Program-made: the position numbers and the translations under genes
In this document: in pieces, positions 2,674-36,787 of the stretch
Numbering within the stretch: position 1 is the first letter of the stretch
Layout: each line of letters opens with the position of its first letter
Notes under the pieces: model-generated
Database searches by the model: none
What the model saw: only the letters and a program-made list of their open reading frames with translations
Told to the model about the DNA's origin: nothing
IMG/VR virus record: IMGVR_UViG_3300042009_000023
Location: 1 to 64,000 of that record
Strand: one strand, 5' to 3'
Length of the DNA: 64,000 nt
Source: a virus
Lineage: Duplodnaviria; Caudoviricetes

Positions 2674-3029
2674 TCTTACTCTCCTCTTTCAATTCCTTCA
2701 CGCACATCTTGCCATAACCGTGAGTAGATTCTTTGCTACACTTATTCTTCTCCCTAGCTCCACATGAGCAGCGTTCAGAGTTTGTCATTTGATCACACTC
2801 TTCTTGTCAATACAAATCTCTCTTTCCCCTCTAGCATGGTAAAGAACACCACCTTTCTTCTCACAATCTGTGTAACCCTTCTCCACTTGTGCAATATTCC
2901 AAGGCAGCCAAATACAAAATAGAATTACACAAAGTATAATCAGCAGAACTTTCACAGTACTTCCTCCAGTTTAATCCACTCACAACAACCACCATCCTTA
3001 ATATCTGTAAGTCTATACCACACACTGCC

Positions 3030-3058
3030 ATCATCAAGTATTGCGGTCTGAATGTCAA
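3030..3058 (-). promoter_or_regulatory. sigma70-type promoter
   Basis: TTGACA-17 nt-GATGAT on the minus strand. Confidence 0.5.
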
Positions 3059-3240
3059 TTGTTATTGTTGAGATATTTCGTTTAGGGAAATGTAGGATGT
3101 TGGTCATTTCCCATATCCCAAACTATCTTGCCAATCCAAATAGGCATAGTAATTATCAAACCACATCCACATATCAAAGCAATACACTGGATATTTAGGC
3201 TCTTGTTTGATTTCTATTTGTAAACTTATAACAGTTTGCA

Positions 3241-4148
3241 TTAGCGACTCCTAGGTGGTGATGGCGGGCTTGGACGATTACTGAACCACTCTTTAACTTT
3301 AAGATTTACACTCTCTTTAGAAGAACAGCAATCTCCACAAGAGTACACCCAAGGACGATTAAATTGCATCTGAAATCTAAACCCATTCTCACGCCTAAAG
3401 TCTTTATTACAAAACCAACACTGTTGCCAGAAGATTAGACCGTAGTGTTTGTAAATATCTCCACCTACTACGTTGCTATATTCTATGTGTTCACGTTTCA
3501 TCAATAACCTCCAATACCAACAAACCCATCTTCGTATTCAACAATATGTTTCAGTGGGTCGATATCTACAAAAAGAAGGTTTCCCTTCCTGTCGTAATCA
3601 GCCACATTAACTTCAACATCTTCTGGGAAGTTTTGTAGAGCTTCTATCAGTTCTTTAATTGTCATAATTTCTCTCCTATTTGAATTTCCTACTATAACTT
3701 TTCTTCTTGAATCTCGCAAGGTTTTTCTCAGCTTCCCTCTCAACCTTCTCAGCATATTTCATATAAGCCTCATAAAGAATCTCCCTGTTTGGAAGGTCGT
3801 TTGGGAGATTGTGTGCAAGCTTTCGGAAGTAAGGAGGGATAGGGCTTACTTTGATATCACGCTTGCTCAAGATTTATCCTTAGTATCCAGCCAAGTTCTA
3901 TAAACATTAATGTCCACCAAGACATCCATATCGTCAGGAATACCCTCTACAAGCTTTTTATAGTCAGTAAAGTAAGTGCTGTATTCGTGCCAAACAGTCT
4001 CGCCTGTGTAGATGTTAATCTTATAGGCATTGTCTTTTGAGAACACAAACTCGAAATCGTCAAGATTGTTCATATCTTCTGGTGCTAACTGAAAATAACG
4101 ATAAGATTTAATCTCCCGTATTTGTTTTGCCTTCATACTGACTTGCAT
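3241..4148 (-). CDS. run of small hypothetical genes (3241-3504 Cys-rich, 3501-3755, 3676-3870, 3867-4148)
   Basis: Co-oriented coupled ORFs. The true start of 3501-3755 is probably the internal MTIKELIE after an AGGAGA RBS. Confidence 0.65.
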
Positions 4149-4153
4149 TATTA

Positions 4154-4990
4154 TTATTTCTCCAAGAATTCGTTAATAACAGGAACAACTTCTACCGTAC
4201 TGGTCAAAAGGAAAAGATGACCTTCGGTTGGCAACACATGCAAACTAGAGTTAGGAATAAGATTGTTCATAATCTTCATATTGATTAGTGGGATGATTGG
4301 GTCGTCACCAGCTCCCATCAGAAGTGTAGGTTGTTTAATACAAGGAAGCATCCAAATTGAGGACCACCAACAAATAGCAAGCTGTTGAAACTTATAGCCT
4401 GTACTATTACCTTTATTCTCAGACTTATCTTCTTGCATCTTTGCAGCATACTTAATTGCTAGCTCAGGATCTGTTCGGAATTTCCCACCGTAGATCATTG
4501 GTGCTATCTCGGCCATGTAGCTAGGATCGGAGTATCTACGAGGAGATGCCATTAGAGAAAGCACTTTCATACTTGGTGGAATACTGGTAACGCCTGTTGC
4601 TGTAGCACATAGGATTAGTTTCTTACAGCGTTGTGGGTGATCATATGCAAACTGGGTTGCCAAAAATCCACCCCATGATAGGCCAAGGACATTAACTTGT
4701 GCGTAGTTCAAATAATCAAGCATGTGGCTTACTGTTTTAGCCAAGCCGCTAAAGCGATATGGCAGCGAAGGAGTAGAACTACCACCACATCCAGGTACAT
4801 CAAAAGTAATAATCTCAATATCAGGGTTCGATTCGTGCATAGCTTCAACAAATGGTGCCAGTAAAGTTGTATTCGCTCCAATACCATTCATAATCAGTAG
4901 AGGAACTGTCCCAACCTTCCCCGGCTTAATGGAAACGTAGATTGATTGGTTCCCCAACGTAATTGTTTGATTTTGCATTTTAATATTCAC
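4154..4990 (-). CDS. phaZ: poly(3-hydroxyalkanoate) depolymerase, Pseudomonas intracellular mcl-PHA PhaZ type
   Basis: Alpha/beta hydrolase with NGIGAN oxyanion loop, FDVPGCGGSSTP, lipase box GLSWGG, MASPRRY, GDDPIIPLINM (Asp) and GHLFL (His). These follow the Pseudomonas PhaZ sequence as recalled. Confidence 0.9.
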   Translation of the reverse strand: MNIKMQNQTITLGNQSIYVSIKPGKVGTVPLLIMNGIGANTTLLAPFVEAMHESNPDIEIITFDVPGCGGSSTPSLPYRFSGLAKTVSHMLDYLNYAQVNVLGLSWGGFLATQFAYDHPQRCKKLILCATATGVTSIPPSMKVLSLMASPRRYSDPSYMAEIAPMIYGGKFRTDPELAIKYAAKMQEDKSENKGNSTGYKFQQLAICWWSSIWMLPCIKQPTLLMGAGDDPIIPLINMKIMNNLIPNSSLHVLPTEGHLFLLTSTVEVVPVINEFLEK

Positions 4991-6491
4991 AATATTCTCC
5001 CCTTAAGTCCATCACCCCAACCCATAGAATACGCTTTAAAGAATAACTGATAAGCACCACAAGTGTGTACATCATTAAAATACTGATCAAGTGTGGGGTG
5101 AGGACTAACGTCCAATCCTTGCTCTTTGGCAAGAGGTATGAATAAGTCGTACATTGTTTTTAGTGAGCTAATCATTTTATTCTCCTTTGTTGTAGCGTTT
5201 ACTGCAAGACATCTTGTGACCAACGCTTTCTGTGTTGCCGCATTCTACACAAGAGTTACTTCCGTGCCAAGGGCAGTCACTGACGGTAATACGTCTACCA
5301 AAATACATAGGATCTTCGTTGTCCCTCTTTGGACAGGTGCAGCCTTTGATATGCTTCCAATAGCGGTGATAATTCCTATCTTGAGGAAACCCCCAAAGTC
5401 TTTGTAAATTATATTCCCTCTTCTCCACTTCTGCTACAGGATCTGTATAAAGCTCTGGATCTGCAAGTACAGAAGATAAGAAATTATATTCATCTTCTAA
5501 TAGGGCTTCGGTTTCCTTGTTTATACCTTGTTTCTTAAGTAGTGCTTCATTCAATTTCACGGCTTATTCTCCGAAAGGACAATCATTACAATTCCTGCGG
5601 GCAACGTTATCGGCCAGATAACACACAGAAGTATATCCTCTTTCCAAGGATAAGACTTGCCTTTCACATAGCAACTGTGTGCATGGATGTATGAAACGAT
5701 GAGTGATACGATAAAATACTGTATAAAGAACATGGTATAACTCCTAAGAGCCACTACCGGGCCCTGTTAATGATGAAACGGCTAGAATGTGTGAAAACTA
5801 CACCAAACAATCGGTTTAGATGCCATCTACAGCCCCTCTTTGAACTCTAGAACCAATCCTACCATGCTTAGTGCCGTAAATCTACTGTTATTCTCAACTA
5901 ATTGATTTAAATTACTAAACCCTGTACTACTCAGGAAGTCACTTACCTCAATCCCAAGCTTCTTACAAGCTCTACGAATATATTTCACCTCACTAGAGGG
6001 AATCCACCAACCCGGAAGGCGTATTCCATATTTTGAAGCTGTGTCTGCCCAGTAGCTGTGATCCATGTATTCTGTTTTAAGGTGATGTCTTGCATATTCT
6101 TGATCGGCCACACGTTTAAGTTTAATTGCTTCCCTTTGTTCTTCTGTCATTGGTGCTAGGTGTTTCATTTTCTTCTCCTAATTTATAAAATAAATCATAT
6201 AACTATGCCAGCATTCATAGAACATTTATTAACTAAATAACTATGAATATTAATAACATCTGATTCTGTAAACACCATCCCTTCCTTGGACTTCTTGACT
6301 ACCAACTCCACTGTGACTTCAGCAGCTTTAATAGAACACACCTCAAGAACATCTTTCTGCCACTTACTGTACATTGTACCAGACCCAACTATCACCGTAT
6401 ACTTTGGGTGAGTGGTGCAGCCTGTGATAATACAAGTAAAGCTTAAAACAAGAATACTGCTCATAAAAGTGGTGTTTACAGAAATCTTCAT
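4987..6491 (-). CDS. run of small hypothetical genes (4987-5223, 5177-5560 Cys-rich, 5557-5754 membrane, 5827-6168, 6195-6491 possible lipoprotein)
   Basis: Co-oriented ORFs with RBSs; hydrophobic segments in 5557-5754 and 6195-6491 (ITGC lipobox-like). Confidence 0.65.
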
Positions 6492-6576
6492 GTTATTCTC
6501 CTGTCCCTAAAAGACTATATACAGCCTATTGGGGGTTAAAGTAGGATTTGATGGGTTAATAGTTATATTTTGGTTA

Positions 6577-6933
6577 TTACTGATCATTTTCTTTGTCCTT
6601 TGGTTCTACTGGCGTAGGAGCCCACAATTTGGCAAATTTCAACACATTAGGAACATCATCACTCTGAACAGGTATCACCACAAGACAACTAGGCTCACCA
6701 TTCAAAGTTGTATTCTCCCATCCATTCCAGCACAGCAGTGTAGTTTGTATTTTAGCAAACTCTTTACTGTTGACTCTCAATACTACCTTCTTAAAAGAGT
6801 TCTGTAACCAATCTTGATATACAGGCTCATCTTCAAAGAATCTGTGGGCATTGATCACAGAGTGTGCTACGAGGGTAGGCACCATGAAATCGTTTACTTG
6901 GTCGAGTACGGCAATGTACATTTTGCTAGTCAT
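6577..6933 (-). CDS. peptidyl-tRNA hydrolase Pth2-like protein
   Basis: KMYIAV...LVAH, W....FKKVVLRV and H/W.E motifs; size matches phage Pth2-like proteins. Confidence 0.65.
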   Translation of the reverse strand: MTSKMYIAVLDQVNDFMVPTLVAHSVINAHRFFEDEPVYQDWLQNSFKKVVLRVNSKEFAKIQTTLLCWNGWENTTLNGEPSCLVVIPVQSDDVPNVLKFAKLWAPTPVEPKDKENDQ

Positions 6934-6946: not shown

Positions 6947-7120
6947 CAGTTCTTTGATATACTCCAGAATGTCTGCTGCTTGCTCCATAGCATAAGTTAT
7001 CAACTCGTTAGGTTCTATGTCACAGGATTTAGAGATACGGTTGCATCTGTTGTTCGCACGGTTCAGGTCAGAATGCAGTAACTCCAACTGACGGGTAAGT
7101 TTTTCTTTATTCAATTCCAA
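6926..7120 (-). CDS. hypothetical protein
   Basis: 64-aa ORF coupled to both neighbours. Confidence 0.6.
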   Translation of the reverse strand: MELNKEKLTRQLELLHSDLNRANNRCNRISKSCDIEPNELITYAMEQAADILEYIKELKDKEND

Positions 7121-7637
7121 GCTCCTTCTTAGCTTTCTCTACAATACTCTTAGCTTGTGCATACAGAGTAGCATTACCTTCAGTCAACACCTCCAACAAC
7201 AACTCTTTCTCCTTGATGTAGATCTTTGCAAAGTCTTTATCGTGTTCACAGATTGACTTACTGTTTGAGATAAGGTCTGCAAGTTTGATTGTCTTAGCAC
7301 TTGGAGAGGCTTGTGCTGTGTGTTGACGATCAATCTCTTTACGTATGGCGCGATTGCCGTCTTCTGGCTTAGATACATCTGAAAGCCAACCAACAAGCTC
7401 AGCAACTTCTTTCCCAAACTCTTTCTCAATCAATTCATTTGCAATATTACAGTCCTCCTGTACATCGTGAAGGTATGCTGCTGCAATCATATCATCTGTA
7501 CCATACACAGAGTAGACGGTCATTGCCACCTCTGCTGGATGGTGATAGTAAGACTCTCCAGTGTATTTTCTCTTCTGTTGCATGGCTTCGTGGGCTGCTA
7601 TCGAAAAGATTCTGGCTTTTGCTGTTACTGAGTTCAT
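7107..7637 (-). CDS. HD-domain RelA/SpoT-type small alarmone hydrolase ((p)ppGpp hydrolase-like)
   Basis: QKRKYTGESYYHHP, YLHDVQED, FGKEVAELV..LSD and IKLADLISN match the Mesh1/SpoT hydrolase motifs. Confidence 0.85.
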   Translation of the reverse strand: MNSVTAKARIFSIAAHEAMQQKRKYTGESYYHHPAEVAMTVYSVYGTDDMIAAAYLHDVQEDCNIANELIEKEFGKEVAELVGWLSDVSKPEDGNRAIRKEIDRQHTAQASPSAKTIKLADLISNSKSICEHDKDFAKIYIKEKELLLEVLTEGNATLYAQAKSIVEKAKKELGIE

Positions 7638-14661: not shown

Positions 14662-15279
14662 TTATTCAGTCTCCCCATTAAACACATTAAACTCCTCATA
14701 TACCACCCAAGCTCCCTCATCTACAGGCCCGTCGCTGTCAATACAATAAGCTCCGGCTTTAAAATACATAAGATATTGCTGCCAAGCATCATCCACTTTC
14801 ACAGTATAATACGCACCATTGAGTAGAACATGCAACACTCCAGACTCATCCACCTCAACACTGTACCAGAACGATTGTCCTAGACTGCAAGGAATCGACA
14901 ACACTTTACTTGCGTTGCCAGAAGGCGTAGCCCTAACATCAACCCTAGCATACCCATTCCACCACGTCACCATTAAGAATGGAACTGATGTACCGTGAAT
15001 CTGTCCTACAATAACCTTACCACTACTTGGTGCCAATTCTACACGAACAGCTCCTGACATGCTATGGCTAGCAGTACCAACTAACCAATTATAAGGTTCA
15101 CCAGAATTAGGCCATGTTTCCCTACCTTCTGTACGAGGGCTTGAGCTAGTTCCAGAAGTATCCCCTTGGACAGAACACCAATAGTTTGTATGTCCTTTTG
15201 GATCTACCCACACTAGATTGCTAGGTGGTTTCTCGGGGTACTTGTAAACAATCCCATGTGCTGTAATACTACCGAACAT
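14662..15279 (-). CDS. polysaccharide lyase family 7 (alginate lyase)
   Basis: All three PL7 signature regions are present: PRTEGRE, VGQIH and YFKAGAY. Confidence 0.85.
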   Translation of the reverse strand: MFGSITAHGIVYKYPEKPPSNLVWVDPKGHTNYWCSVQGDTSGTSSSPRTEGRETWPNSGEPYNWLVGTASHSMSGAVRVELAPSSGKVIVGQIHGTSVPFLMVTWWNGYARVDVRATPSGNASKVLSIPCSLGQSFWYSVEVDESGVLHVLLNGAYYTVKVDDAWQQYLMYFKAGAYCIDSDGPVDEGAWVVYEEFNVFNGETE

Positions 15280-19909: not shown

Positions 19910-20341
19910 GTGCATACAATGGCTACCAAAAAACCTCAGACTCCAGCCCAGAAGGCAACCCGCTTCGACGGTGAAAAATCTAATAGAAACAAATCTGGTA
20001 ATTCCAGTACTCGCATCAATAAAAGTAAAATCAGTAAACTCCTTGACCAGCTCATGGAGCGTAAAGAACTCGCATTTGAAATCATTGATGACATCCTTGC
20101 AAATAAGGGTGATCGCACAGCAGACCAAAAGTCTACAGCTCAGTGGTTGGTAAACAGCATTGTTTCGGTAAGTAAAGCATGTACAGCTGAAGAACTTGGA
20201 TCTTTCAACGCCCGTCTTAAAGGGAAAAGGGATGATGAGCCCGAAGAACAAACTCCGGCTGAGATTGCTAAAGAGTTTAAGCCACGTTTGGTTCTAACTT
20301 ATAAAGATCCAAATGCTGTTCCAGAAGATGAAGATGAGTAA
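19910..20341 (+). CDS. probable terminase small subunit
   Basis: RFDGEKSNRNKSGN N-terminal motif, helical middle and acidic tail; first sizeable gene upstream of the terL block. Probable start is ATG 19919. Confidence 0.5.
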   Translation: MHTMATKKPQTPAQKATRFDGEKSNRNKSGNSSTRINKSKISKLLDQLMERKELAFEIIDDILANKGDRTADQKSTAQWLVNSIVSVSKACTAEELGSFNARLKGKRDDEPEEQTPAEIAKEFKPRLVLTYKDPNAVPEDEDE

Positions 20342-20399
20342 CAAGAAACCTGCACGAAATCACTACTGCTGATAGCGTGTTGAATTTATGTTATTGGAA

Positions 20400-20812
20400 A
20401 GAATTTGAGGTTGGATAGTAGGTCCGTATTAATTGTTAGCTTACGTTACTTATTACCAAATCCTCAAACCTAACGTATGCCTCGGCCTGCGTATCTGAGA
20501 ACTTTGCCTAGTTCATTCAGAAAGCTAATCTGGCGGTTAGCTGCAATATCTTATGTCTGCGTAAGAAACAGACCGGTTGACCCTCGTTACTGTGTCGTGT
20601 GGTGAAGCCCTTTGAAATCTTTGCAGAGGGAGAGCTTAGTTTCCGGGTAGCGTGGGAGAACTAACACCTATTTTATACACAATTATATTTCTTAGTACAA
20701 TAGAAATTGATTGAGCTGAGTGGTACGAATTACCTACCACGTATACAATTTCCCTTTGTAACAATAACAATAAGGTTCTTCTAATGAAAGAGCCATCTCT
20801 TTAAAGGGAGAT
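20400..20812 (+). ncRNA. ORF-free, densely structured region (candidate ncRNA or long 5' leader)
   Basis: At least eight inverted repeats, for example TTTGAGG..CCTCAAA, TCTGA-GAACT..AGTTC-TCAGA, AGCTAA..TTAGCT, GTCTG..CAGAC, CCCTTTG..CAGAGGG, GTGGTA..TACCAC. Confidence 0.45.
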
Positions 20813-20818
20813 AGCAAT

Positions 20819-21898
20819 ATGGCGATAACAAGAGTAGATGTTGTAGTACCAAAAGGAGTTTGGACAAACCTCTACACAGCTTCTGGTATTACTGTCGGTA
20901 CACAAGTAGAAGTGCATAACAAAAGCACTTCATTCTGTAAAATTGCTACCTCAGCATTAGCTCCAACAACAGTGGATGGTTATCACCTCTCTGCATTTCC
21001 TGAGGCAGATCCACTAGAAATTGCCCCCGGTGAGGTTGGGTTGTGGGCTTACTCTCCTAACTCTACTGCAACTCTTTTAGTCCAAGAGAAAGCCCTCGAA
21101 AAGAGTAGCAATGGCTCCCTGTGGACTACAAACGTTCACCCTAAAGGCATGGATTTTTATACAGCTGTGGGATTGGGTCTTGTCCCCGGTGTTCGTAGGG
21201 TCACTGGTCTAGGTAGCAACCCGGATGTTGACCAAGCTTCACTACCGGAAGATGTGTGGTCTGTTGGCGGGCTTTATCCATGGATGACAGCAGCTACGAG
21301 TCTTGAAGTAGTATCCACCAGTACTAGTGACGCAGCAGCCGGTGTAGGCGCTAGAACAATCACTATCTTTGGTCTTGATATCAACTATGTCGAAGTTAAC
21401 CAAAGCATTACACTGAATGGCACAACGCCTGTTGCAGTTCCTCTTCAGTTGTTTCGAATTAATTCGATACTAATTATGAGTGCAGGCACTACCAAGGTTA
21501 ACGTAGGGGATATCAACGTTCGTGACGCTGGTGGTGGTACAATCAGAGGACAGATTCCAGCAGGGTTTGGATTGGCAAGGCAGGCTATTTATACAGTTCC
21601 AGCAGGGCACACCCTAAGCGTCCACTCAATACTATTCGCCCAGACAAGATCAGGCGGTGTGGATAGGACTGTTACTATGGCTACGGTCTTCCAGTCCCCA
21701 CTAGGTTTCTATAGAATACCTCTTGAAGTTGCTGTTAGTCAGGTCACACCTTACCGACATGAGGGAGACCCCGGAATTATCGTGGCAGAGAAAACAGATT
21801 TTGCTATTAGGGTGTTGTCTGCATCAACTAACGACACCAGCGTTACGGCAGCCTTTCTTGGCACGATGTATTCTGCTGCAACATTAGCGTTAGTTTGA
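20819..21898 (+). CDS. two-domain beta-rich putative virion accessory protein
   Basis: N-terminal ~90 aa is paralogous to the next two ORFs; the C-terminal domain is Thr/Val/Gly-rich. Confidence 0.6.
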   Translation: MAITRVDVVVPKGVWTNLYTASGITVGTQVEVHNKSTSFCKIATSALAPTTVDGYHLSAFPEADPLEIAPGEVGLWAYSPNSTATLLVQEKALEKSSNGSLWTTNVHPKGMDFYTAVGLGLVPGVRRVTGLGSNPDVDQASLPEDVWSVGGLYPWMTAATSLEVVSTSTSDAAAGVGARTITIFGLDINYVEVNQSITLNGTTPVAVPLQLFRINSILIMSAGTTKVNVGDINVRDAGGGTIRGQIPAGFGLARQAIYTVPAGHTLSVHSILFAQTRSGGVDRTVTMATVFQSPLGFYRIPLEVAVSQVTPYRHEGDPGIIVAEKTDFAIRVLSASTNDTSVTAAFLGTMYSAATLALV

Positions 21899-21899
21899 G

Positions 21900-22190
21900 G
21901 TGTCTATGGAAAATGTAATAGTAATTTCTGGGGATACAAAAGAAGACGTAATTCTTTCCGGATTGGAGTGGGAGAATGCCTATGAGCTTTCAGCCATTAC
22001 TCCCGGTACTGCGATCACTATTCAAAACAAAACTACAGACTATCTCTATGTGTTTGTTAAGTCTGAAAAACCTCCGGTTGAAATTAGTGATGGTATTAAG
22101 ATAGCAGTCGGGCAGTCTGCTCAAGTAGCAGCATCCCAATCAGGATGTTGGCTGAGTGGATATGGTAGAGTGAATATTAGAGTTACGTAG
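21900..22190 (+). CDS. single-domain paralogue of the 20819 N-terminus
   Basis: W.NAY.LSAI.PGT.ITIQNK. Confidence 0.65.
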   Translation: MSMENVIVISGDTKEDVILSGLEWENAYELSAITPGTAITIQNKTTDYLYVFVKSEKPPVEISDGIKIAVGQSAQVAASQSGCWLSGYGRVNIRVT

Positions 22191-22254
22191 TTGCTTTATA
22201 GATAACTCTCACTGGAGTTGTTGATATATTTAAATCTAGATGGGAGAAACACTA

Positions 22255-22521
22255 ATGGCTGATACAATTAATGATGTAGTTTTGGCTGGTGCAGATTGGC
22301 AAGATGGTTATGCCCTTTCTGGTATTGCTGGTGGTACTAGTGTTCAAATTCAGAATAAGACTTCTGGAAGAGTGTTTATCTATTTCAAAGCTACCAAACC
22401 AACTGCTGATTTTGGTAATGGGTTGGTTCTAGACAGCTATGGTCTTTACACTGTTCCAGCAAGTGTAAGTGGTCTGTGGTTGTTTGGTGATGGTCCTGTC
22501 CATATCCGTAACCCAGCGTAA
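22255..22521 (+). CDS. single-domain paralogue of the 20819 N-terminus
   Basis: W.DGY.LSGI.GGT.VQIQNK; GGGAGA RBS before ATG 22255. Confidence 0.65.
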   Translation: MADTINDVVLAGADWQDGYALSGIAGGTSVQIQNKTSGRVFIYFKATKPTADFGNGLVLDSYGLYTVPASVSGLWLFGDGPVHIRNPA

Positions 22522-22532
22522 GTTGTTTTACA

Positions 22533-22631
22533 AAGCCACTTTGAAATATAAGTGGCTTCAATAAGACAATTGAAAATAGTTTAAATTAATTATCCAAACA
22601 CTTGACAAATAGCGCTCCTATAGCGTAATAT
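22533..22631 (+). terminator. terminator-like hairpin (22533-22558) followed by a sigma70 promoter (22602-22631)
   Basis: AAGCCACTT..AAGTGGCTT; TTGACA-18 nt-TAATAT. Confidence 0.55.
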
Positions 22632-22661
22632 CTCTTTTATGAACTTAGGAGAGAAACCAAA

Positions 22662-22994
22662 TTGAATAAATATAAGCTGTTGATTACGAGTCAAGACTTC
22701 CATGGCGTTAACTTCATTGAGAATATTGCAAAGTATTCTATGAAGGGTGCTGTGATTGATAAGACTGTCCATTTGTTTAATGATTACCCACATAGCTGCG
22801 TGATGCTTATTGAGACTGAAGAGTTTCTTAAGAGCGAGCCTAGTGTTGAAGTGGTGATTGTTAAGGAAGAGTGGACGAAGGAATCTCTTGAGGCGATGGA
22901 TTGGGATACTCTGAGAGCCACTTGTAAGACTCGTGGGATTACTGGTAGGGATCGTGATCAGATTATTCGTAAGTTTTTGGAAGTAGAAGTTTAA
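22662..22994 (+). CDS. hypothetical protein with a C-terminal HeH/Rho-N-like helical motif
   Basis: WTKESLEAMDWDTLRATCKTRGITGRDRDQII. Confidence 0.55.
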   Translation: MNKYKLLITSQDFHGVNFIENIAKYSMKGAVIDKTVHLFNDYPHSCVMLIETEEFLKSEPSVEVVIVKEEWTKESLEAMDWDTLRATCKTRGITGRDRDQIIRKFLEVEV

Positions 22995-23004
22995 GTAACA
23001 CAAT

Positions 23005-23087
23005 GAGAGCGAAAAGGCTGGCCAGCCCTGACGATTGCCGATACAATCGTATAGCTTTCACCTAATTAAATCTTATCGGAGATACGA
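23005..23087 (+). promoter_or_regulatory. structured 5' leader with a possible pseudoknot covering the RBS
   Basis: Stems GAGAGC/GCTTTC, GGCT/AGCC and ACGATTG/CAATCGT; loop CCGATA is complementary to TATCGG at 23074-23079, which overlaps GGAG. Confidence 0.5.
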
Positions 23088-23093
23088 AGTTAT

Positions 23094-24605
23094 ATGGCTC
23101 GCATTAGAAAAATTTTAGATCTAATTGGTACTCGCGTTGGTAGGTTGGTCGTAGTTAATGCGGCTCCAGATAGGGTCCGTGTAAGAAAAGATAGCTCTAA
23201 TTCTATAAGAGCTTATTGGAACTGCTTGTGCGACTGTGGAAATTCCATTGAAGTAAGGCAGGATGCTATCCTATCTGCAAAAAGCAATAGCTGTGGATGT
23301 CTTCGTGATGAACGAGCTAAGACAAACATTAAGGCGGCACTAGCTAACTATAAGCCAAAACCAGCTCAGGACTTGACTGGTAAGAAGTTCGGAAGACTTA
23401 CTGCAATCAATGAAGCGGAGAGAAGTGTAACTCCAAAAGGTAGAACACTAATCCGTTGGAATTGTTTATGTACTTGCGGAGTAGTTAGAGATTATCAATC
23501 GGACCAATTGCGTGCAGGCAAGTCAACATCTTGTGGGTGCATTCTTCCAGAATTTGTAAACTCTCTTTTCAACTCACAAGGTGAGATTTTTAAATACAAA
23601 GCTTCTTTAGTTCACGGGGATAAATATGATTATCAACTGGTTGAGTATAAGCACAGCCAAGAAGATATCTATATTGTTTGCAGAGACCACGGGAGCTTTA
23701 GACAAAATCCATCCAACCATTTACAAGGTCACGGATGCCCCCGTTGTTCTGGTGTGAGGGGTAATGACTACGATTTAACTTTGACGAAGTTAATTTGTGA
23801 TATCCACCAAGAGGAATTCTACTCCAGCTCAAAATGTAGTAAATGCATAGAAGCAAAGTTGGAATATGAGAATAAGAGTTTTGCTGAAAAGGCAATAGAA
23901 GTACACGGATTAAAATACGATTACAGTAATAGTGTATTTACTGGATACTGTAGTGATATTACAATTCTGTGCCATGAACATGGGGAATTTACACAGAAAG
24001 CAAATTTGCACCTCAATGGGAATAATTGCCTAAAATGTAGTATTGAAGACCGCAAACTTGGATACGATGGTTTTGTAGAAAAATCTGTATTAAAACATGG
24101 AGACAGGTATGACTATTCTAAAGCTGTTTATAGCCATATAAATATACCTGTTGAAATAATTTGTGCCTCTCATGGATCATTTTGGCAAAAACCTAGTGTA
24201 CATTTTAATGGATCTAATTGTCCAAAATGTTCAATAGAAGTTAGGTCAGAAAAACAACATTGGAATTATCTTGAAAGGTGTAGATTAAACCCTGAAATGG
24301 GAGAAGCTATTGGGTGCATTTACTTATTAAAAATGACTCATGAAGACGAATCTTTTCTTAAGCTAGGTATCAGCTCTAGTCATAAAAAGAGATTAGCCAG
24401 ATACCGAGAAGAAAATATTGATTTTGAAGTTATCACACTAAAAGAGATGAAAAACGTAGCGGCAGCTATACTCGAAAGAGATATATTAGCAGCTATTAAA
24501 CAGGCCGGACTTAAATACCTACCTCAAGTTGAGTTTAAAGGTTATACCGAGTGTTCGACACTAGAAGCCGAGGACTTTATTTTAGAAAGGATTTATGATG
24601 GCTGA
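23094..24605 (+). CDS. large modular homing-endonuclease-like protein (CxCxCG repeats, DUF723-like repeats, C-terminal GIY-YIG-like domain)
   Basis: 2x GRL...WNCLC.CG...SCGC; 3x HG.KYDY...C..HG.F.Q....H..G..C..C; then CIYLLK...FLKLGIS...RLARY. Confidence 0.7.
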   Translation: MARIRKILDLIGTRVGRLVVVNAAPDRVRVRKDSSNSIRAYWNCLCDCGNSIEVRQDAILSAKSNSCGCLRDERAKTNIKAALANYKPKPAQDLTGKKFGRLTAINEAERSVTPKGRTLIRWNCLCTCGVVRDYQSDQLRAGKSTSCGCILPEFVNSLFNSQGEIFKYKASLVHGDKYDYQLVEYKHSQEDIYIVCRDHGSFRQNPSNHLQGHGCPRCSGVRGNDYDLTLTKLICDIHQEEFYSSSKCSKCIEAKLEYENKSFAEKAIEVHGLKYDYSNSVFTGYCSDITILCHEHGEFTQKANLHLNGNNCLKCSIEDRKLGYDGFVEKSVLKHGDRYDYSKAVYSHINIPVEIICASHGSFWQKPSVHFNGSNCPKCSIEVRSEKQHWNYLERCRLNPEMGEAIGCIYLLKMTHEDESFLKLGISSSHKKRLARYREENIDFEVITLKEMKNVAAAILERDILAAIKQAGLKYLPQVEFKGYTECSTLEAEDFILERIYDG

Positions 24606-26031
24606 AGAAAAAGGAAAATCCCTGCCGGGGCCGATTAGTGAACGTCAACATATGTACGTCACAGCCCCGGTGGACGTGACCCTCTATGGCGGGGCAGCAG
24701 GTTCTGGTAAATCGGAAATCGGCGTAATTGATTTCTTGAAGTATACAGACATTCCAAATTTTATTGGGGTAATGACCAGACGGAATACCCCACAGCTCAC
24801 CGGCCCCGGTGGCCTACTAACTAAGTGTAAGCGGATATTTGCTCAAGCATATGGTCCTGATGAATTCACTTGGAGAGCGAAGGACGGAAAGTTTTTGTTC
24901 CACAAGAGCGGAGCTGAAATTTATTTAAAACACTTTGAAAATGATCAAAGTGATGTCTCATGGCAAGGTGCCGAGGCAAATCTTTTCTACGTAGACGAAG
25001 GTACGCAGTTCACACAACACATGATCCAATACATCATGTCTCGTATGCGTAACCCATCTTGCCCAGAAGTAAAACCCCACCTAAAGATTACTTGCAACCC
25101 AGACGCAGATCATTTTTTGAGGAAATGGGTAGAGCCTTACTTGCATGAAGATGGTACTCCAGATCGAAGTAGGGATGGTGTTGTAAGATATTTCTCCTTC
25201 CAAGATGGTGACTTTGTTTGGGGAGACTCGATTGAGGCTCTTGTTGAGAACCACGGTATAGCGGAAGAGGATGCTCTGTCATTCACTTTTATTAGTGCTA
25301 ACGTAGATGATAATCCAATTGTAAAGCGAGTTAACCCAAAGTATGTTTCGTGGCTTAAGGGTCTCAAAGGCACTGAAAAAGCCAGATTGCTTTTTGGGAA
25401 CTGGTATGTACGAGATTCTGGTAGCGGGTTCTTCAAGCGCGACTGGCTGATCCCGGTGAAAATGTTTGAACAAGAGATTGTATCCCGTTGTAGGGCGTGG
25501 GATATCGCTGGCACTATGCCATCAGATGCTAACCCAAATCCTGACGCCACTTGCGGAGTTTTAATTGCTAAGACTAAACAAGGGCAATACATCATTGAAG
25601 ATGTTATAAAATTTAGGGCTCGGTATGGTGAGGTTATGAAGACTATCATCAAGACAGCTCAGACAGATCCAGAAGAGACTCAGATTATACTACCTCAAGA
25701 GCCCGGTCAAGCCGGAATTGCAGCCGGTAAGATGATGATCAAAGAGTTGATTGAGGAAGGTTTTAGCGCCCGCATGAGACCAACTAACAAATCTAAGGTG
25801 GTTCGTTTTCAGCCTTTTGCTGCTGCTGCTGAAGCTGGTCTTGTTTCTTATGTTGAAGGTCCGTGGAACGAAGCTTATTTCCATGAGCTAGAGGCTTTTG
25901 ATGGTAGTCGTAATGTAAAAGATGACCAAGTGGATAGTACTTCGGACTCTTTCATAACCTTAGCCCAGAAACTCAATATCCCTCTATTCTCCATGCCCAG
26001 CATGACAAAATCCAACGAATTCAGCTTTTAA
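24598..26031 (+). CDS. terL: terminase large subunit
   Basis: YGGAAGSGKS (Walker A), FYVDEGT (Walker B), RAWDIA and DDQVD nuclease motifs. Confidence 0.95.
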   Translation: MAEEKGKSLPGPISERQHMYVTAPVDVTLYGGAAGSGKSEIGVIDFLKYTDIPNFIGVMTRRNTPQLTGPGGLLTKCKRIFAQAYGPDEFTWRAKDGKFLFHKSGAEIYLKHFENDQSDVSWQGAEANLFYVDEGTQFTQHMIQYIMSRMRNPSCPEVKPHLKITCNPDADHFLRKWVEPYLHEDGTPDRSRDGVVRYFSFQDGDFVWGDSIEALVENHGIAEEDALSFTFISANVDDNPIVKRVNPKYVSWLKGLKGTEKARLLFGNWYVRDSGSGFFKRDWLIPVKMFEQEIVSRCRAWDIAGTMPSDANPNPDATCGVLIAKTKQGQYIIEDVIKFRARYGEVMKTIIKTAQTDPEETQIILPQEPGQAGIAAGKMMIKELIEEGFSARMRPTNKSKVVRFQPFAAAAEAGLVSYVEGPWNEAYFHELEAFDGSRNVKDDQVDSTSDSFITLAQKLNIPLFSMPSMTKSNEFSF

Positions 26032-26054
26032 ACAATTAAGCCTTAAGGAATAAC

Positions 26055-27530
26055 ATGGCAGAAAATGACAATTTAAATCTCTCTGCCGGTGATAACCCTG
26101 CCTTAAGAATTAAGATGGGAGAAACTGGCTGGGTTGGTTTGCGTGAGTTCGATGGCATCATTCTTGAAGAGATGCGAAAGGATTTGCAATGGCCTCGTGC
26201 CAACCGCACCTACCAAGAAATGGGCGAAGATGCAACAATTGCTTCTGCTCTCTCCTTGTTCTCTATGATGATTAGCCGAGTTAAATGGAAAGTAGTTCCT
26301 CCAGTTGATGCTACTGAAGATGACCTAAAGAAAGTTAAGTTCCTCGAACAATGTATGGATGATATGGATCATAGTTGGTTCTCCTTTATTAAGGAAGTGA
26401 CCAGTATGTTCACATACGGATATGCGATTCAAGAAAAGATTTATCGTCGTCGTCGTCCAAGTACAGGAAGTCGCTTTGATGATGGCTTGGTTGGTATTGC
26501 TAAACTAGCCACTCGCTCTCAGACCACTATTTATCGTTGGTTGTTTGATGATTCTGGTCGTAACCTTAATGGTGTTGTACAGGATACAAGCTTCCTAGTT
26601 GATGGTTATCGCTTAGCCAACAGTAAAGAGTACGGTGGACAGATTGACATTGAACGTAAGAAGTTTCTTCTTTTCCGAACAGATGTTAGTCGAGATAACC
26701 CACAAGGTCGCTCCCCTCTAAGTAAAGTTTATAAAGCATGGCGCTATCGTAAGCAGATTGAAGAATCAGAAGCTGTTGGTATCACTCGTGGTTTGGGCGG
26801 TATCCCTCGTTTTGATATTCCTGCTGACTACCTTAAGTCTGATGCTACAGCAGATCAACTTGCAACTGTAGAAGCCTTTAAGAATATTGGTCGTAACCTT
26901 CAAAACAACGAACAAGCTTGCATCATCATGCCTAAGTTTTATGATGATCAAAACAATAGCTTGTTTGACTTTGAATTGATTGGCCCACCTAACGCCTCCC
27001 AATACGATACTGATAAAGCAATCACTCGTTGGGATAACAAGATTCTTCAAGCATTGTTTGCCGATATCTTGCAGATGGGCAACTCTAAAGGTGGCTCTTT
27101 CAACCTTGCAGACTCTAAGTCCTCTATTGTACATATGGCAGTTGAAAGTTATCTGAAAGAGATTCAAGACCCTCTTAACAATGATCTTATCCCACAACTG
27201 TTTTTGCTAAATGGCTGGTCGTTAGATCGTCTTCCTAAGTTTGAATATGATCAGATTAAAGAAGAAGATTTGGATGTTCTTTCTAAGTACTTACAACGCG
27301 CTGCATCGGTTGGTTTGATTGCGGTTACTCCTGAAAACATTAACCAAGTTGCTGATTGGGTTGGCTTGCCTACACGTCACGATTCTGGAATGGATACTGA
27401 GGAACTTCGTACTAAGCTAACTGGATATGAATCTGGCGCTGCTGAAGGAATGACCTCAGCAGGTGAAGGGACAAGTAAAAGCCCAATGGGATCAGACGAT
27501 GCTTCAGTAGGGAATTCGGAGAATACATGA
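26055..27530 (+). CDS. portal protein
   Basis: Directly after terL, 491 aa; NPQGRSPL..VY..W and GGSFNLAD motifs. Confidence 0.9.
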   Translation: MAENDNLNLSAGDNPALRIKMGETGWVGLREFDGIILEEMRKDLQWPRANRTYQEMGEDATIASALSLFSMMISRVKWKVVPPVDATEDDLKKVKFLEQCMDDMDHSWFSFIKEVTSMFTYGYAIQEKIYRRRRPSTGSRFDDGLVGIAKLATRSQTTIYRWLFDDSGRNLNGVVQDTSFLVDGYRLANSKEYGGQIDIERKKFLLFRTDVSRDNPQGRSPLSKVYKAWRYRKQIEESEAVGITRGLGGIPRFDIPADYLKSDATADQLATVEAFKNIGRNLQNNEQACIIMPKFYDDQNNSLFDFELIGPPNASQYDTDKAITRWDNKILQALFADILQMGNSKGGSFNLADSKSSIVHMAVESYLKEIQDPLNNDLIPQLFLLNGWSLDRLPKFEYDQIKEEDLDVLSKYLQRAASVGLIAVTPENINQVADWVGLPTRHDSGMDTEELRTKLTGYESGAAEGMTSAGEGTSKSPMGSDDASVGNSENT

Positions 27531-28036
27531 GTATTGAAACAGAAGAAGTTAAGAAAAGTATTCTTGAAGGGTTCTCTGAATTCATTGAGAAATACTTTGG
27601 AGCCACTACTGATAGTGCTCCTGTAGTTGAAGAACTAGATGAAGAGATGGTGTCCTACGAAGTTGTCTATGAGCCTCTGATTAAAGATGCTCATGGGGAA
27701 TGGATGTCTGAATCTACTATAGCTGAAGCTTGTGATAACTTCAATCAGAACCTTGAGAAAGGGGTTGTTACTCCTAACCTTTTCCACATGGAAGAAACCG
27801 ATGCATTCACCATTGAGTCCACTTGGGTTCAAAAGGAATTGGATGTAAAAGTTATTCAAACTGGTGAAGTTATTAAGGCTGGCACTTGGGTCGCTAAGAT
27901 TAAATACCACAGTGAGGATCTTTGGAACCTCAAGAAATCTGGTGTTATTGGTGGCGTTTCCATTGGTGGACGTGGGGTTATTAACCAAAAGACTGGTGAA
28001 ATTACTAACGTCACCTTTGATGGAGAAGACAATTGA
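27527..28036 (+). CDS. prohead protease (XkdF-like)
   Basis: VYEP..KDAHGEW, NLFH, ESTW, GVSIGG. Confidence 0.8.
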   Translation: MSIETEEVKKSILEGFSEFIEKYFGATTDSAPVVEELDEEMVSYEVVYEPLIKDAHGEWMSESTIAEACDNFNQNLEKGVVTPNLFHMEETDAFTIESTWVQKELDVKVIQTGEVIKAGTWVAKIKYHSEDLWNLKKSGVIGGVSIGGRGVINQKTGEITNVTFDGEDN

Positions 28037-28956
28037 CAGACACTAAAAAGAAAAAGCCCCATCTTGCTTTGACACACAAAGCTTTGCAAGGTGGTAGTGC
28101 TAATGGACGTAATGTATCTCTACTCATGAAAAGTGATGTTGAGATTACCGAAGAAATTACCAAGTCTCTTGAAGCTCTTGGGATTAATAAATCAATGTTC
28201 GCATCCAAAGTTAATGAATTGCTGAATGGTGCAATTCGTGAAGCATATGGTGATGATGATCATTGGCTTTATGTAGAAGATTATGATGATTCTATTGTTC
28301 TCTTCTGTAAAGAGGAAGGTTTGTTCTCTGTAACCTATTCTCTCGTAGATGGACAAGTTACCCTAAGTGACTTAGCCAAACCTGTTTCACGGGTAATTAC
28401 TTATGAACCTGTGACTGGGGATATGCTTCTGTCTGAAGACGCGGAAGATAAACTAGAAGAAGGAATCTATAGCCTTGTAACTAAAGCCCTTCAAAATAAA
28501 TCCACAAAAGAACATCTTGTTGAGATGTTTAAAGCACAAGAACTTAAAAAGTCTGAGGTAGAAATTTTGGAACAAGAAATTAAGAAAGCAGTTGATGCTG
28601 CTGAAGCAATTCTCAAAGCCCAGCTTGTAGAAAAAGAAGCTGACCTGACTAAAGCACTTGAAGAAGTTGCTGTATTCAAAGCTGAGAAACTTGAAGTAGT
28701 TGCTAAAGCTCGTAAAGAGAAACTGGCTGCTCTTGGTAGTGATGAAGAAGCTGAAGCTCTGTACAAAGCAACTGAGTCGCTAGCTGATGAAGCATTTGAA
28801 GTAATGCTGAAAGCTCTGGGTGCTAAATCCAAAGTAGAGAAAGAATCCGATCTCTTCAAAGAGAAAGGCGTAAGCGGTGAAGGTGAACCGAAGAAACAAG
28901 AAGAAGCTGGTCTGAATCTTGTTGGTGAACTTATTAACAAAAGTAAAAAACAATAA
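28033..28956 (+). CDS. scaffolding protein
   Basis: Long Glu/Lys/Ala coiled coil between protease and capsid genes. Confidence 0.7.
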   Translation: MTDTKKKKPHLALTHKALQGGSANGRNVSLLMKSDVEITEEITKSLEALGINKSMFASKVNELLNGAIREAYGDDDHWLYVEDYDDSIVLFCKEEGLFSVTYSLVDGQVTLSDLAKPVSRVITYEPVTGDMLLSEDAEDKLEEGIYSLVTKALQNKSTKEHLVEMFKAQELKKSEVEILEQEIKKAVDAAEAILKAQLVEKEADLTKALEEVAVFKAEKLEVVAKARKEKLAALGSDEEAEALYKATESLADEAFEVMLKALGAKSKVEKESDLFKEKGVSGEGEPKKQEEAGLNLVGELINKSKKQ

Positions 28957-28998
28957 TATTGTTTATCAATAAAATCCTAGCTAGGAGTTTCAAATAAT

Positions 28999-29397
28999 AT
29001 GGCTGCAATTGACACTCGCTCTACTCGCCTCGGCGCTGTACTGCAATATGAAGAACATCCAGAATACGGCTACTGCCGCAAGGTTGTTACCGTTACCGAA
29101 GCTTCGGAAGTTGTGTATGAAATCGGTCGCGTAATTGGCGATGATCTCGACACCTTCCAAGATACTGATAACTTTGTTGGTATTTACATCGGTAGCCCTA
29201 CTGGCGACAACAAGCAAACTATCGCTGCTGCAACCGCAACTGATGTAGTTGTTCTGTTCCGTGGCCCGGCTGGTGTAGGTAAAGCAAATCTGGTCTTTGG
29301 TTCAACTGTAAACGACGCACCAAAGCTTGCTACTGCACATGCTGCAATCGAAGCTGCTGGTATTCAGCTGATTGACCAACCTGAACAATTCGCGTAA
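28999..29397 (+). CDS. head decoration protein
   Basis: Immediately upstream of the major capsid gene; VVVLFRGPA motif. Confidence 0.7.
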   Translation: MAAIDTRSTRLGAVLQYEEHPEYGYCRKVVTVTEASEVVYEIGRVIGDDLDTFQDTDNFVGIYIGSPTGDNKQTIAAATATDVVVLFRGPAGVGKANLVFGSTVNDAPKLATAHAAIEAAGIQLIDQPEQFA

Positions 29398-29410
29398 GGA
29401 ATAATAAATA

Positions 29411-30454
29411 ATGGCAACTGTTCGCAGCTATGGTAATGGCTTTCAACTTACCGAATGGACCGAAGAAATCAACAACATCGACAATCAAGCTGGTTTGATT
29501 GGCGGTATGAATCTGTTCCGTACTCAGGGTACTTCGCAAACTGCTATTGTCTTTGACAAGAGCATGAACGACACCACTCTGCTCCCACAAGTATCCCGTC
29601 GCAGCCGTGAGACCACTAAAGGCAATGACCGTCAAGTAGAGACTTTCTCTCTGCCTTTGGCTTACTTCAAGCACAGCGACTACATCACCCCTGAAGATAT
29701 TCAAGGCTGGCGTATGCCGGGCACCCCAGACGCTCCTGAGCAACTGGCCCGTGTTCGTGTACAAAAACTCACCGACATGAAAGCCCAAGTAGAGCAATCG
29801 CTTGAGTACATGAAGCTTCAAGCAGCTAAAGGGATCATGAAGACCCCAGACGGTGCTGTAATTGCCAACATGTTCACCGAGTTTGGTGTTACTCAGGAAG
29901 TGATTGACTTTGATCTTGGTGATGCAACTACCGATATCAACGCTAAAATCTCCCAACTGAAGCGCTTTCTGCAAACCAACCTGAAAACTGGTTCCGCTAT
30001 TGGTGGTGGTATTCGTGTTGTTGTAGATGGTAGCTTCTTCGACAAACTGGTTAGTCACCCACAGATTCGCCAAGCCTATCTGTACTACTCTTCGCAAGTA
30101 GAGATTAACCGTAACAGCACCAACCAGTTCATGGCTTGGGGCTCTGTTGATCAGTTCACCTACAAAGGTGTTACTTTCATCACTTACGATCACATCTTTA
30201 AACTGCCTAACGATACCACCGAAGTAGCCGTTGCTGCTGACACTGGCCACGTGATCCCAGTTGTGAATGATCTGTTCCGTGGTTACTACGGCCCAAGCAA
30301 CAAGCTTGGTGGTGCAAACAGCGTAGGTCGTGAAATGTTCGCCTATGAGTTCACCGATCCTAAAGACGAGTTCCACGAAATGCAAGTTGAGACTTCTCCT
30401 CTGTACTTCGTAACTCAGCCACAAGTACTGGTGAAATTGATTTCTTCGACTTAA
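29411..30454 (+). CDS. major capsid protein (lambda gpE-like)
   Basis: 347 aa, strong codon bias, position, terminal ETSPL...QPQVLVK motif. Confidence 0.9.
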   Translation: MATVRSYGNGFQLTEWTEEINNIDNQAGLIGGMNLFRTQGTSQTAIVFDKSMNDTTLLPQVSRRSRETTKGNDRQVETFSLPLAYFKHSDYITPEDIQGWRMPGTPDAPEQLARVRVQKLTDMKAQVEQSLEYMKLQAAKGIMKTPDGAVIANMFTEFGVTQEVIDFDLGDATTDINAKISQLKRFLQTNLKTGSAIGGGIRVVVDGSFFDKLVSHPQIRQAYLYYSSQVEINRNSTNQFMAWGSVDQFTYKGVTFITYDHIFKLPNDTTEVAVAADTGHVIPVVNDLFRGYYGPSNKLGGANSVGREMFAYEFTDPKDEFHEMQVETSPLYFVTQPQVLVKLISST

Positions 30455-30467
30455 TAGTCAATAGAAA

Positions 30468-30495
30468 GGGGTTCTGAAAGGAACCCCATACAATT
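30468..30495 (+). terminator. hairpin terminator after the capsid gene
   Basis: GGGGTTC-TGAAAG-GAACCCC. Confidence 0.65.
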
Positions 30496-30515
30496 TTACA
30501 GATTAGGAGTATAAA

Positions 30516-30860: not shown

Positions 30861-30864
30861 AATT

Positions 30865-30895
30865 AGGGCAGCTTGTCTGCCCTCCTTTACTTTAT
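30865..30895 (+). terminator. Rho-independent terminator
   Basis: AGGGCAG-CTTGT-CTGCCCT followed by T-rich tail. Confidence 0.7.
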
Positions 30896-30906
30896 AAGGA
30901 GGCTGC

Positions 30907-32803: not shown

Positions 32804-32889
32804 GTAACAGAAGGCATTCGTATGCCGCAATATAAATAAAGTCTAATTAAGGATTAACGAATGTCTTTTCAAACAAGTGAGGTAGCCGC

Positions 32890-34176: not shown

Positions 34177-34199
34177 TAATAAAAGAGTCTCTTACAGTA

Positions 34200-34258: not shown

Positions 34259-34259
34259 A

Positions 34260-35180: not shown

Positions 35181-35191
35181 AGGTAAATTAT

Positions 35192-36766: not shown

Positions 36767-36787
36767 TTTAATTCTGAGATAAAATAA

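Follow-up and report, generated by a model that had tools for sequence, protein, structure and literature searches.

A PhaZ-Like Gene of a Rhizosphere Myovirus Suggests That Phages May Draw on the Polyhydroxyalkanoate Store of Their Hosts

A Phage-Encoded Homologue of Pseudomonas PhaZ

The window considered here is the whole stretch of DNA that was analysed, 64,000 nucleotides corresponding to positions 1 to 64,000 of the IMG/VR virus record IMGVR_UViG_3300042009_000023. It carries a phaZ-like gene, whose predicted product resembles the intracellular medium-chain-length polyhydroxyalkanoate (mcl-PHA) depolymerase of Pseudomonas. The gene, its catalytic codons, its lid hinge, its neighbouring open reading frames (ORFs), and further features of the window are located in Table 1.

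Table 1. Positions, in window numbering, of the phaZ-like gene, its predicted functional sites, and other features mentioned in the text (aa, amino acids)
Feature	Coordinates	Strand	Remarks
phaZ-like gene	4154..4990	-	ORF with GTG start at 4990 and TAA stop; 278-aa intracellular-type mcl-PHA depolymerase homologue (alpha/beta hydrolase with lid)
GLSWGG motif	4667..4684		residues 103-108; lipase box G-L-S-W-G
Predicted nucleophile, Ser105 codon	4676..4678	-	matches PhaZKT Ser102 in the alignment; same residue in all 53 sequences aligned
GDDP motif	4298..4309		residues 228-231
Predicted catalytic Asp230 codon	4301..4303	-	matches PhaZKT Asp221 in the alignment; same residue in all 53 sequences aligned
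GHLF motif	4211..4222		residues 257-260
Predicted catalytic His258 codon	4217..4219	-	matches PhaZKT His248 in the alignment; same residue in all 53 sequences aligned
Lid-hinge segment EDKSENKGN	4406..4432	-	6 residues longer than in Pseudomonas PhaZ; E187 at the Ser184 position
Shine-Dalgarno-like AAGGGGAGA	4996..5004	-	read from the sequence; 5 nt 5' of the GTG start
Upstream ORF	4987..5223	-	78 aa, function unknown; TGA stop overlaps the phaZ GTG (GTGA); no Pfam or PHROG match
Downstream ORF	3867..4148	-	93 aa, function unknown; 5 nt past the phaZ stop; no Pfam or PHROG match
Small ORF	6577..6933	-	118 aa; phrog_5822, function unknown, 171 bits
HD_4 gene	7107..7637	-	176 aa, stand-alone; PF13328, 58.7 bits
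PL7 alginate lyase gene	14662..15279	-	205 aa, non-structural block; PF08787, 104.7 bits
Homing-endonuclease-like ORF	23094..24605	+	503 aa, HNH/T5orf172 type; PHROGs 681, 559, 374

With TIGR02240, the NCBIfam equivalog for poly(3-hydroxyalkanoate) depolymerase, the phage protein scores 325.8 bits, which exceeds the curated cut-off of 250.6; the best score with any other family is 86 bits. The specificity of this model can be gauged in a P. putida genome, where the true PhaZ alone passes, with 628 bits, and no other hydrolase exceeds 65.7 bits, and in 14 control genomes, none of which contains a protein that passes the cut-off. Pfam returns general alpha/beta-hydrolase families alone (Abhydrolase_1), and PHROGs labels the PhaZ-like protein "esterase/lipase". 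In the alignment with P. putida PhaZ, 55% of the residues are identical. Membership of the PhaZ family can be assigned to the phage protein with high confidence from these comparisons.

The best-characterised point of reference in what follows is PhaZKT of P. putida, in which the catalytic triad consists of Ser102, Asp221, and His248 (PMC12504323). The predicted triad residues of the phage protein align with these three positions, each within its expected motif. Asn35 is likewise kept, and the FNGIG loop of PhaZKT reads MNGIG in the phage copy, with a single exchange of Phe34 for methionine. In PhaZKT, mutation of Asn35 or deletion of the FNGIG loop abolishes activity, and the lid domain together with this loop is needed for depolymerase function (PMC12504323). 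The lid itself, which spans residues 133-192 in PhaZKT, is present at full length in the phage protein and is conserved as well as the core, with 33 of 60 positions identical (55%); the lid motifs SPRRY and IYGGxFR are common to the phage copy and Pseudomonas PhaZ.

An AlphaFold2 model built on 53 sequences predicts an alpha/beta core with a helical lid at approximately residues 141-206, at a mean predicted local distance difference test (pLDDT) score of 92.7 and a predicted template modelling score of 0.92. The pLDDT falls below 50 only at residues 190-194, which lie inside an insertion at the lid hinge. No solved structure of the TIGR02240-type PhaZ family was found. Taken with the conserved triad and loop, and with a full-length lid whose hinge is altered, the family assignment makes hydrolysis of mcl-PHA the probable activity of the phage enzyme.

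Gene Start and Genomic Context

The start of the gene is supported by comparison with ten homologous phage loci, in all of which the start codon lies at the same position, as ATG or GTG, and in most of which a GGAGA-type site precedes it at the same spacing; the N-terminal sequence MNIKMQNQ is thereby supported as well. The N-terminus holds no hydrophobic signal-like stretch, and the model opens with a beta-strand at residue 6. The GTGA overlap between the stop codon of the upstream 78-aa ORF and the phaZ start suggests translational coupling of the two genes. The downstream 93-aa ORF is found beside phaZ in none of the ten related loci, and small ORFs in the flanks match PHROG families.

phaZ belongs to a leftward block of small ORFs that is divergent from the rightward structural block. 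Sigma-70-like sites occur in the leftward block at chance level, 48 having been found against 46.1 expected from shuffled sequence. A strong terminator-like hairpin is present at 7711-7681 on the minus strand, and there is no further strong one between position 7681 and phaZ, so that phaZ may be carried on one transcript together with the genes upstream of it.

An earlier, sequence-only reading of this DNA, which gave no strand for the gene, had described an intact, full-length PhaZ with a Ser-Asp-His triad, of phage-like composition, preceded by a ribosome-binding site and placed in an early or middle operon. The first three points are borne out: all three motifs lie within a single 278-aa ORF on the minus strand, whose guanine-plus-cytosine (GC) content of 41.2% is close to the 40.9% of the genome, and AAGGGGAGA stands before the GTG at a spacing that most homologues keep. 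The operon fares less well. Its position in a small-ORF block divergent from the structural genes would suit early or middle expression, but the promoter-like sites are at chance level.

Two other ORFs of the leftward block deserve mention. The HD_4 gene lies 2 kb upstream of phaZ. Its product resembles RelA/SpoT over the N-terminal (p)ppGpp-hydrolase region alone (TIGR00691, positions 2-127 of 687) and is a candidate small alarmone hydrolase of the SpoT type. No strong terminator-like site separates the gene from phaZ, and it occurs near phaZ in four of ten related loci, the linkage thus not being strict. In P. putida lacking (p)ppGpp, infection increases for about half of the tested phages, and the proteins of the PHA operon decrease (PMC12814882). 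The 118-aa ORF, besides its PHROG match, shows a weak resemblance to peptidyl-tRNA hydrolase PTH2 (20.4 bits, below the cut-off of 23).

Phylogeny and Distribution

A protein search returned 566 relatives at E <=1e-20, more than 100 of them at 55-91% identity and many on contigs of 85-92 kb. In IMG/VR, 50 loci with a homologue were retrieved (49 listed and the record of the window itself), with GC contents of 40-60%, and the GC content of the gene is adjusted to each carrier over the same range, from 40% to 60%. The carriers comprise myoviruses of ~90 kb, phages of ~48 kb, and jumbo phages of 228-307 kb; among them are complete terminal-repeat genomes of 90.8, 228.6, and 283.6 kb as well as a 307-kb record, and the copies in these genomes all score above the TIGR02240 cut-off. 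Cultured phages contribute homologues from the Ralstonia jumbo phages RP12 and RP31 only, among 50,697 phage records, and a megablast search of positions 3000-6500 against the same number of records gave no match. Searches with single-sequence patterns found no cellular relatives, for which an alignment-based scan is needed; the nearest cellular proteins are canonical Pseudomonas PhaZ enzymes, at 53-56% identity (one genome per species).

A maximum-likelihood tree of 106 rows shows the evolutionary position of the phage protein. A clade of 91 rows, with a Shimodaira-Hasegawa-like approximate likelihood ratio (SH-aLRT) support of 100, joins every phage-type copy to canonical Pseudomonas PhaZ, and the homologues from other bacteria and from RP12 lie outside it. 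The canonical Pseudomonas enzymes make up seven tight rows with 99% support, and the copy in the window lies not among them but in a phage-type sub-clade that is far more diverse. In the best tree, the 84 phage-type rows are monophyletic, but with a support of only 69.5, which is compatible with one capture or with several. No phage copy is nested inside the sampled Pseudomonas radiation, so that no copy was captured recently from a sampled lineage. Judged from this tree, phage-type PhaZ is an old and diverse lineage rather than a fresh acquisition from a host.

These results bear on three further statements of the sequence-only reading. It had proposed a phylogeny against Pseudomonas PhaZ, which now places the phage protein in a 100%-supported clade with the canonical enzymes, and it had noted that no phaC or phasin gene flanks phaZ, an observation that extends to the whole 89-kb genome, where no homologue of phaC, phaD, or a phasin was found (best tblastn E value 0.17). 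Its description of a captured single gene needs amending: the gene is indeed solitary, but it represents a phage-type lineage that is both old and diverse and that passes between phages unrelated to each other. None of the 50 fetched viral loci carries phaC or phaD. Bacterial contamination, or a prophage-borne pha cluster, was considered and rejected, as the viral loci lack phaC and phaD and the carriers are complete, mostly terminal-repeat genomes with virion genes.

The surroundings of phaZ differ among lineages. In the sampled loci of other lineages, the gene adjoins portal, virion, baseplate, and lysin genes. In a 90.8-kb phage of 58% GC (locus L108, 7983-8828) and in ~48-kb phages of 52% GC (L096, 7953-8786), phaZ lies on the strand opposite to the flanking virion, baseplate, and portal genes and resembles an inserted moron cassette, while the copy in the window sits in a same-strand early block. 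A separate, long-branched PhaZ group on IMG/VR contigs of 58-60% GC (L122-L126) is accompanied by a ParA-like partition protein and a "DNA transfer protein" (PHROGs 164 and 1745), and these elements may be phage-plasmids or plasmids rather than ordinary phages.

One phage-type copy is chromosomal. Pseudomonas lini CC269 carries, in addition to a canonical copy elsewhere (L083), a second PhaZ of the phage-type clade (L009, 6004-6816), which forms a low-GC island of 47.6% compared with 52-58% in the adjacent kilobases. Its neighbours are genes for UDP-galactopyranose mutase, a glycosyltransferase, an epimerase, another alpha/beta hydrolase, and a PAS histidine kinase. As no phage genes surround it and its neighbours belong to polysaccharide synthesis, this copy was rejected as a prophage link to the host; it hints at contact between the phage-type gene pool and Pseudomonas.

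Selection and Mobility

phaZ is under purifying selection. Across the eleven copies of the clade to which the window belongs, the ratio of nonsynonymous to synonymous substitution rates (dN/dS) has a pairwise median of 0.138 and a maximum of 0.233, with synonymous divergence (dS) of ~0.8-1.0 to the closest copies and ~2 to the farthest. In the ten related loci, phaZ is one of the few genes that are always present, and most of its neighbours vary from locus to locus.

The gene is also accessory and mobile between phages. Four complete phages with a capsid protein close to that of the window (85-93% identity) lack it, and it occurs as an 83% identical PhaZ in phages whose capsid proteins are only 24-30% identical; absence beside near-identical capsids, together with close relatives beside distant ones, indicates that phaZ is exchanged. 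Comparison of whole genomes with one phage of each kind revealed a patchwork in both cases, with per-gene identities from ~30% to 98%. Such patchwork genomes indicate that these phages exchange modules, which suggests that they may meet in the same hosts.

This mosaicism is extreme, and its details differ between the two genomes compared, termed G406 and G411. The portal, capsid, and baseplate proteins are 82-94% identical to those of G406 (L174-L178) and 24-62% identical to those of G411 (L179-L183). Closest to G411 are the terminase (73%), the ORF at 20819-21898 (98%), and several early ORFs (90-98%). The median identity over all shared ORFs is ~50% to both.

The Phage and Its Predicted Host

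The record that contains the window is an uncultured IMG/VR virus of 89,356 bp with direct terminal repeats and an estimated completeness of 100%; genes for terminase, portal, major capsid, tail sheath, and tape-measure proteins are all present. Among Pseudomonas myoviruses, those of the PAK_P1 and phiK7A1 types have terminases ~50% identical to that of the record, and Pseudomonas phage vB_PsaM_M1 has a capsid protein with 53% identity to its counterpart here. The phage thus resembles virulent myoviruses of the FelixO1/PAK_P1 type and, with no tyrosine integrase in its complete genome, is probably virulent itself; any benefit of phaZ would consequently fall within lytic infection. The homing-endonuclease-like ORF lies directly 5' of the large terminase gene and overlaps it.

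Alginate is an exopolysaccharide of Pseudomonas and Azotobacter. From the hosts of the nearest cultured phages, the PhaZ phylogeny, and the PL7 alginate lyase gene, we infer that the host is Pseudomonas or a close relative. The PL7 gene is absent from both G406 and G411. Intracellular degradation of mcl-PHA appears to be specific to the genus Pseudomonas (PMC12504323). The only sequencing run that holds the stretch is a DNA metagenome from the rhizosphere, which may be its source.

Proposed Role in Infection

The phage phaZ combines several features of an auxiliary metabolic gene, as a metabolic gene of cellular type that lies in a complete viral genome, matches the phage in GC content, is under selection, and has a conserved start codon and ribosome-binding site. 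Its presence suggests that the phage may tap the PHA store of its host during infection. On this view, a virulent myovirus that infects a PHA-storing, Pseudomonas-like rhizosphere host would express phaZ from its leftward non-structural genes, and the product would act in the cytoplasm as a serine hydrolase belonging to the intracellular mcl-PHA depolymerases of the Pseudomonas type. The enzyme would bind the PHA granules of the host and cut the polyester to (R)-3-hydroxyalkanoic acids, and the acyl-CoA synthetase and beta-oxidation of the host would convert these acids into acetyl-CoA, reducing power, and ATP. Neither an AMP-binding acyl-CoA ligase nor a beta-oxidation gene was found in the phage, and use of the hydrolysis products would rest on host enzymes. 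The energy and carbon released would sustain phage DNA and protein synthesis in carbon-loaded, nutrient-limited cells. PHA storage is favoured where carbon is plentiful and nitrogen scarce, as it is in the rhizosphere.

Four elements of this proposal are inferred: which substrate the enzyme cuts, when it is made, which host is infected, and how the phage benefits. The complete sequence of events, in which a PHA depolymerase is expressed during infection and the host store fuels the phage, is slightly favoured; for the fuel-type benefit as such, the chances appear evenly balanced. A precedent for its logic is offered by Bdellovibrio: when it preys on P. putida, it breaks down the mcl-PHA of the prey by means of a depolymerase of its own and becomes more motile and a more efficient predator (PMC4834554).

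Several observations weigh against this proposal, and they are taken here together with the alternatives to which they lend support. With regard to the substrate, the lid hinge of the phage protein is unlike that of all tested enzymes, with Glu187 in place of Ser184 and six additional residues, and the exchange S184F in PhaZKT raises esterase activity and nearly abolishes PHA depolymerase activity (PMC12504323). The disordered C-terminal tail of the Pseudomonas enzyme is missing from the phage copy. Fold searches against the PDB and the viral BFVD return only generic lidded alpha/beta hydrolases at <=25% identity, including a Bacillus poly(3-hydroxybutyrate) (PHB) depolymerase, a Pseudomonas phospholipase A, and metagenomic esterases, and such matches mean that structure does not decide the substrate. 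With its hinge changed in this way, the phage PhaZ may act on PHA or on other esters.

The phage protein could accordingly have evolved from a PhaZ into an esterase or lipase for another substrate, such as soluble esters, membrane lipids, or acylated signals, its likeness to PhaZ reflecting ancestry rather than present function. The altered hinge and the phospholipase and esterase folds among the top matches speak for such a shift, and the "esterase/lipase" label is given to relatives both by PHROGs and in the RefSeq record of Ralstonia phage RP12. However, the lid is as conserved as the core and retains SPRRY and IYGGxFR, the TIGR02240 score lies far above those of all other hydrolase families, and PhaZKT is reported to be highly substrate-specific (PMC12504323). 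Moreover, other phage lineages of the same clade (L108 and L122) keep Ser184 without any hinge insertion, so that the clade as a whole appears PhaZ-like. A shift in substrate is considered unlikely on this balance.

With regard to the benefit, re-activation of the free acids costs ATP. PHA in Pseudomonas turns over continuously, in a cycle driven by PhaZ, PhaC, and acyl-CoA synthetase (PMC4834554), and given this cost, additional PhaZ alone could increase futile cycling rather than net energy. In Bdellovibrio preying on P. putida, PHA degradation brought no rise in the number of progeny (PMC4834554). These points leave room for a depolymerase that degrades PHA to an end other than fuel: it could clear bulky granules that crowd the cytoplasm or trap phage components, free granule-bound host proteins, or prevent acyl intermediates and reducing power from being drained into PHA. 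All support for depolymerase activity, namely the TIGR02240 score, the clade, and the triad, applies equally to such a role, and the phage brings no ligase or beta-oxidation gene of its own to use the products. Host beta-oxidation, however, suffices for the monomers, and nothing at the locus points to granules or phasins, as the genome has no phasin homologue and the neighbours of phaZ are without known function. A non-fuel benefit of this kind is improbable to a similar degree.

With regard to expression and host, no RNA run that holds the stretch is listed, and no DNA or spacer-like link to 401 Pseudomonas genomes was found, a weak blank because the search covered the 20-kb piece at 20001-40000 alone. 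The gene is, furthermore, dispensable, as the four complete phages with near-identical capsid genes do without it. This absence, and the mosaic block in which neighbours come and go, would also suit a neutral passenger of a hypervariable, recombination-prone region with no role in infection. Such a passenger would hardly show a dN/dS of ~0.14 while dS exceeds 1 between many copies; all copies compared are full length with the triad and have conserved start codons and ribosome-binding sites, and the gene has adjusted its GC content to each carrier and is kept in several unrelated phage lineages. Neutrality is accordingly very unlikely. Least credible of all is a role in lysogenic conversion, to the benefit of the host. 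Such a role has been proposed for the PHB depolymerase of a Gloeobacter prophage, an auxiliary-gene candidate (PMC13317609), and the phage-type copy that forms a low-GC island in the P. lini chromosome might recall it. Against it, the complete genome has no tyrosine integrase, the phage resembles virulent FelixO1/PAK_P1-type myoviruses, and the P. lini copy lies outside any prophage.

A broader and more doubtful extension of the proposal that phage PhaZ mobilises the host PHA store concerns the lineage as a whole. A PhaZ lineage confined to phages might circulate between unrelated phages whose hosts are PHA-storing bacteria of the Pseudomonas type, passing from one to another as an accessory gene, and in the present phage it might form part of a toolkit for starved, stationary, or biofilm cells together with the SpoT-type hydrolase-like protein and a cytoplasmic PL7 alginate lyase. 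With such a toolkit, the stringent response would be switched off, the carbon store burned, and the alginate matrix cut.

The interest of these possibilities lies in the state of the host. Soil and rhizosphere bacteria are mostly nutrient-limited and slow-growing, phage replication in such cells is poorly understood, and storage polymers can form a large share of Pseudomonas cell mass. If the proposed role is true, a selected phage PhaZ lineage would provide a concrete mechanism for phage growth on stored host carbon and an extra term in rhizosphere carbon turnover, and its natural variants with altered lid hinges would be of use in work on the enzymatic recycling of mcl-PHA bioplastics.

Comparison with Known Systems

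The closest characterised counterpart of the phage enzyme is PhaZKT of P. putida KT2440/KT2442, described by de Eugenio et al. (2007), as cited in PMC4834554. The two proteins share the TIGR02240 family, 55% identity, the triad, Asn35 with the NGIG loop, a lidded alpha/beta fold, and the lack of a signal peptide. In contrast to PhaZKT, the phage copy has methionine for Phe34, glutamate for Ser184 with the 6-residue hinge insertion, and no C-terminal tail, its activity is a prediction from sequence, and it belongs to a separate phage-type sub-clade with a GC content of 41%, compared with ~48-64% across the sampled P. lini locus L009. A further difference is one of context rather than of the enzyme, as the phage gene is solitary, whereas in P. 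putida the order is phaC1-phaZ-phaC2-phaD.

The depolymerase PhaZBd (Bd3709) of Bdellovibrio bacteriovorus resembles the proposed phage system in that an invader's own enzyme degrades the mcl-PHA of its victim inside the victim, with an energetic benefit reported for PhaZBd (PMC4834554). The likeness is one of logic; PhaZBd is an extracellular-type enzyme, a type without a lid (PMC12504323), and comes from a cellular predator.

Among cultured phages, ORF269 of the Ralstonia jumbo phages RP12 and RP31 is 45% identical to the phage PhaZ over 98% of the length and is also solitary, but its place in the tree is a long branch among the outlying rows, apart from the clade of Pseudomonas and phage enzymes. 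The Ralstonia host of these phages stores short-chain PHB. The homologue is annotated as hypothetical or as "esterase/lipase", and no discussion of it as a PHA enzyme was found in searchable papers. The automatic annotation of the Joint Genome Institute already names several relatives "poly(3-hydroxyalkanoate) depolymerase". The topic had been thought to be rarely discussed, and a literature search, in which subscription journals are thinly covered, indeed yielded no paper on a phage mcl-PHA depolymerase.

The nearest proposals in the literature concern other virus-borne genes of PHA metabolism. Phage-borne phaC, phbB, fadD, and others have been reported from metagenomes as auxiliary metabolic gene candidates in PHA-producing mixed cultures (PMC12013262), a paper in whose text the words "depolymerase" and "phaZ" do not occur. 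Like the phage phaZ, these candidates and that of the Gloeobacter prophage (PMC13317609) are proposed to reprogramme host carbon storage, but they are synthesis genes (PMC12013262) or a short-chain PHB depolymerase (PMC13317609), not Pseudomonas-type mcl-PHA depolymerases. The phage phaZ would therefore stand beside them as a phage-specific sub-lineage of a known enzyme family acting as a putative auxiliary metabolic gene, to which the window adds a hinge insertion at a specificity-determining site, direct evidence of an accessory gene swapped between phages with unrelated capsid genes, and the company of a SpoT-type hydrolase-like gene 2 kb upstream and of an alginate lyase.

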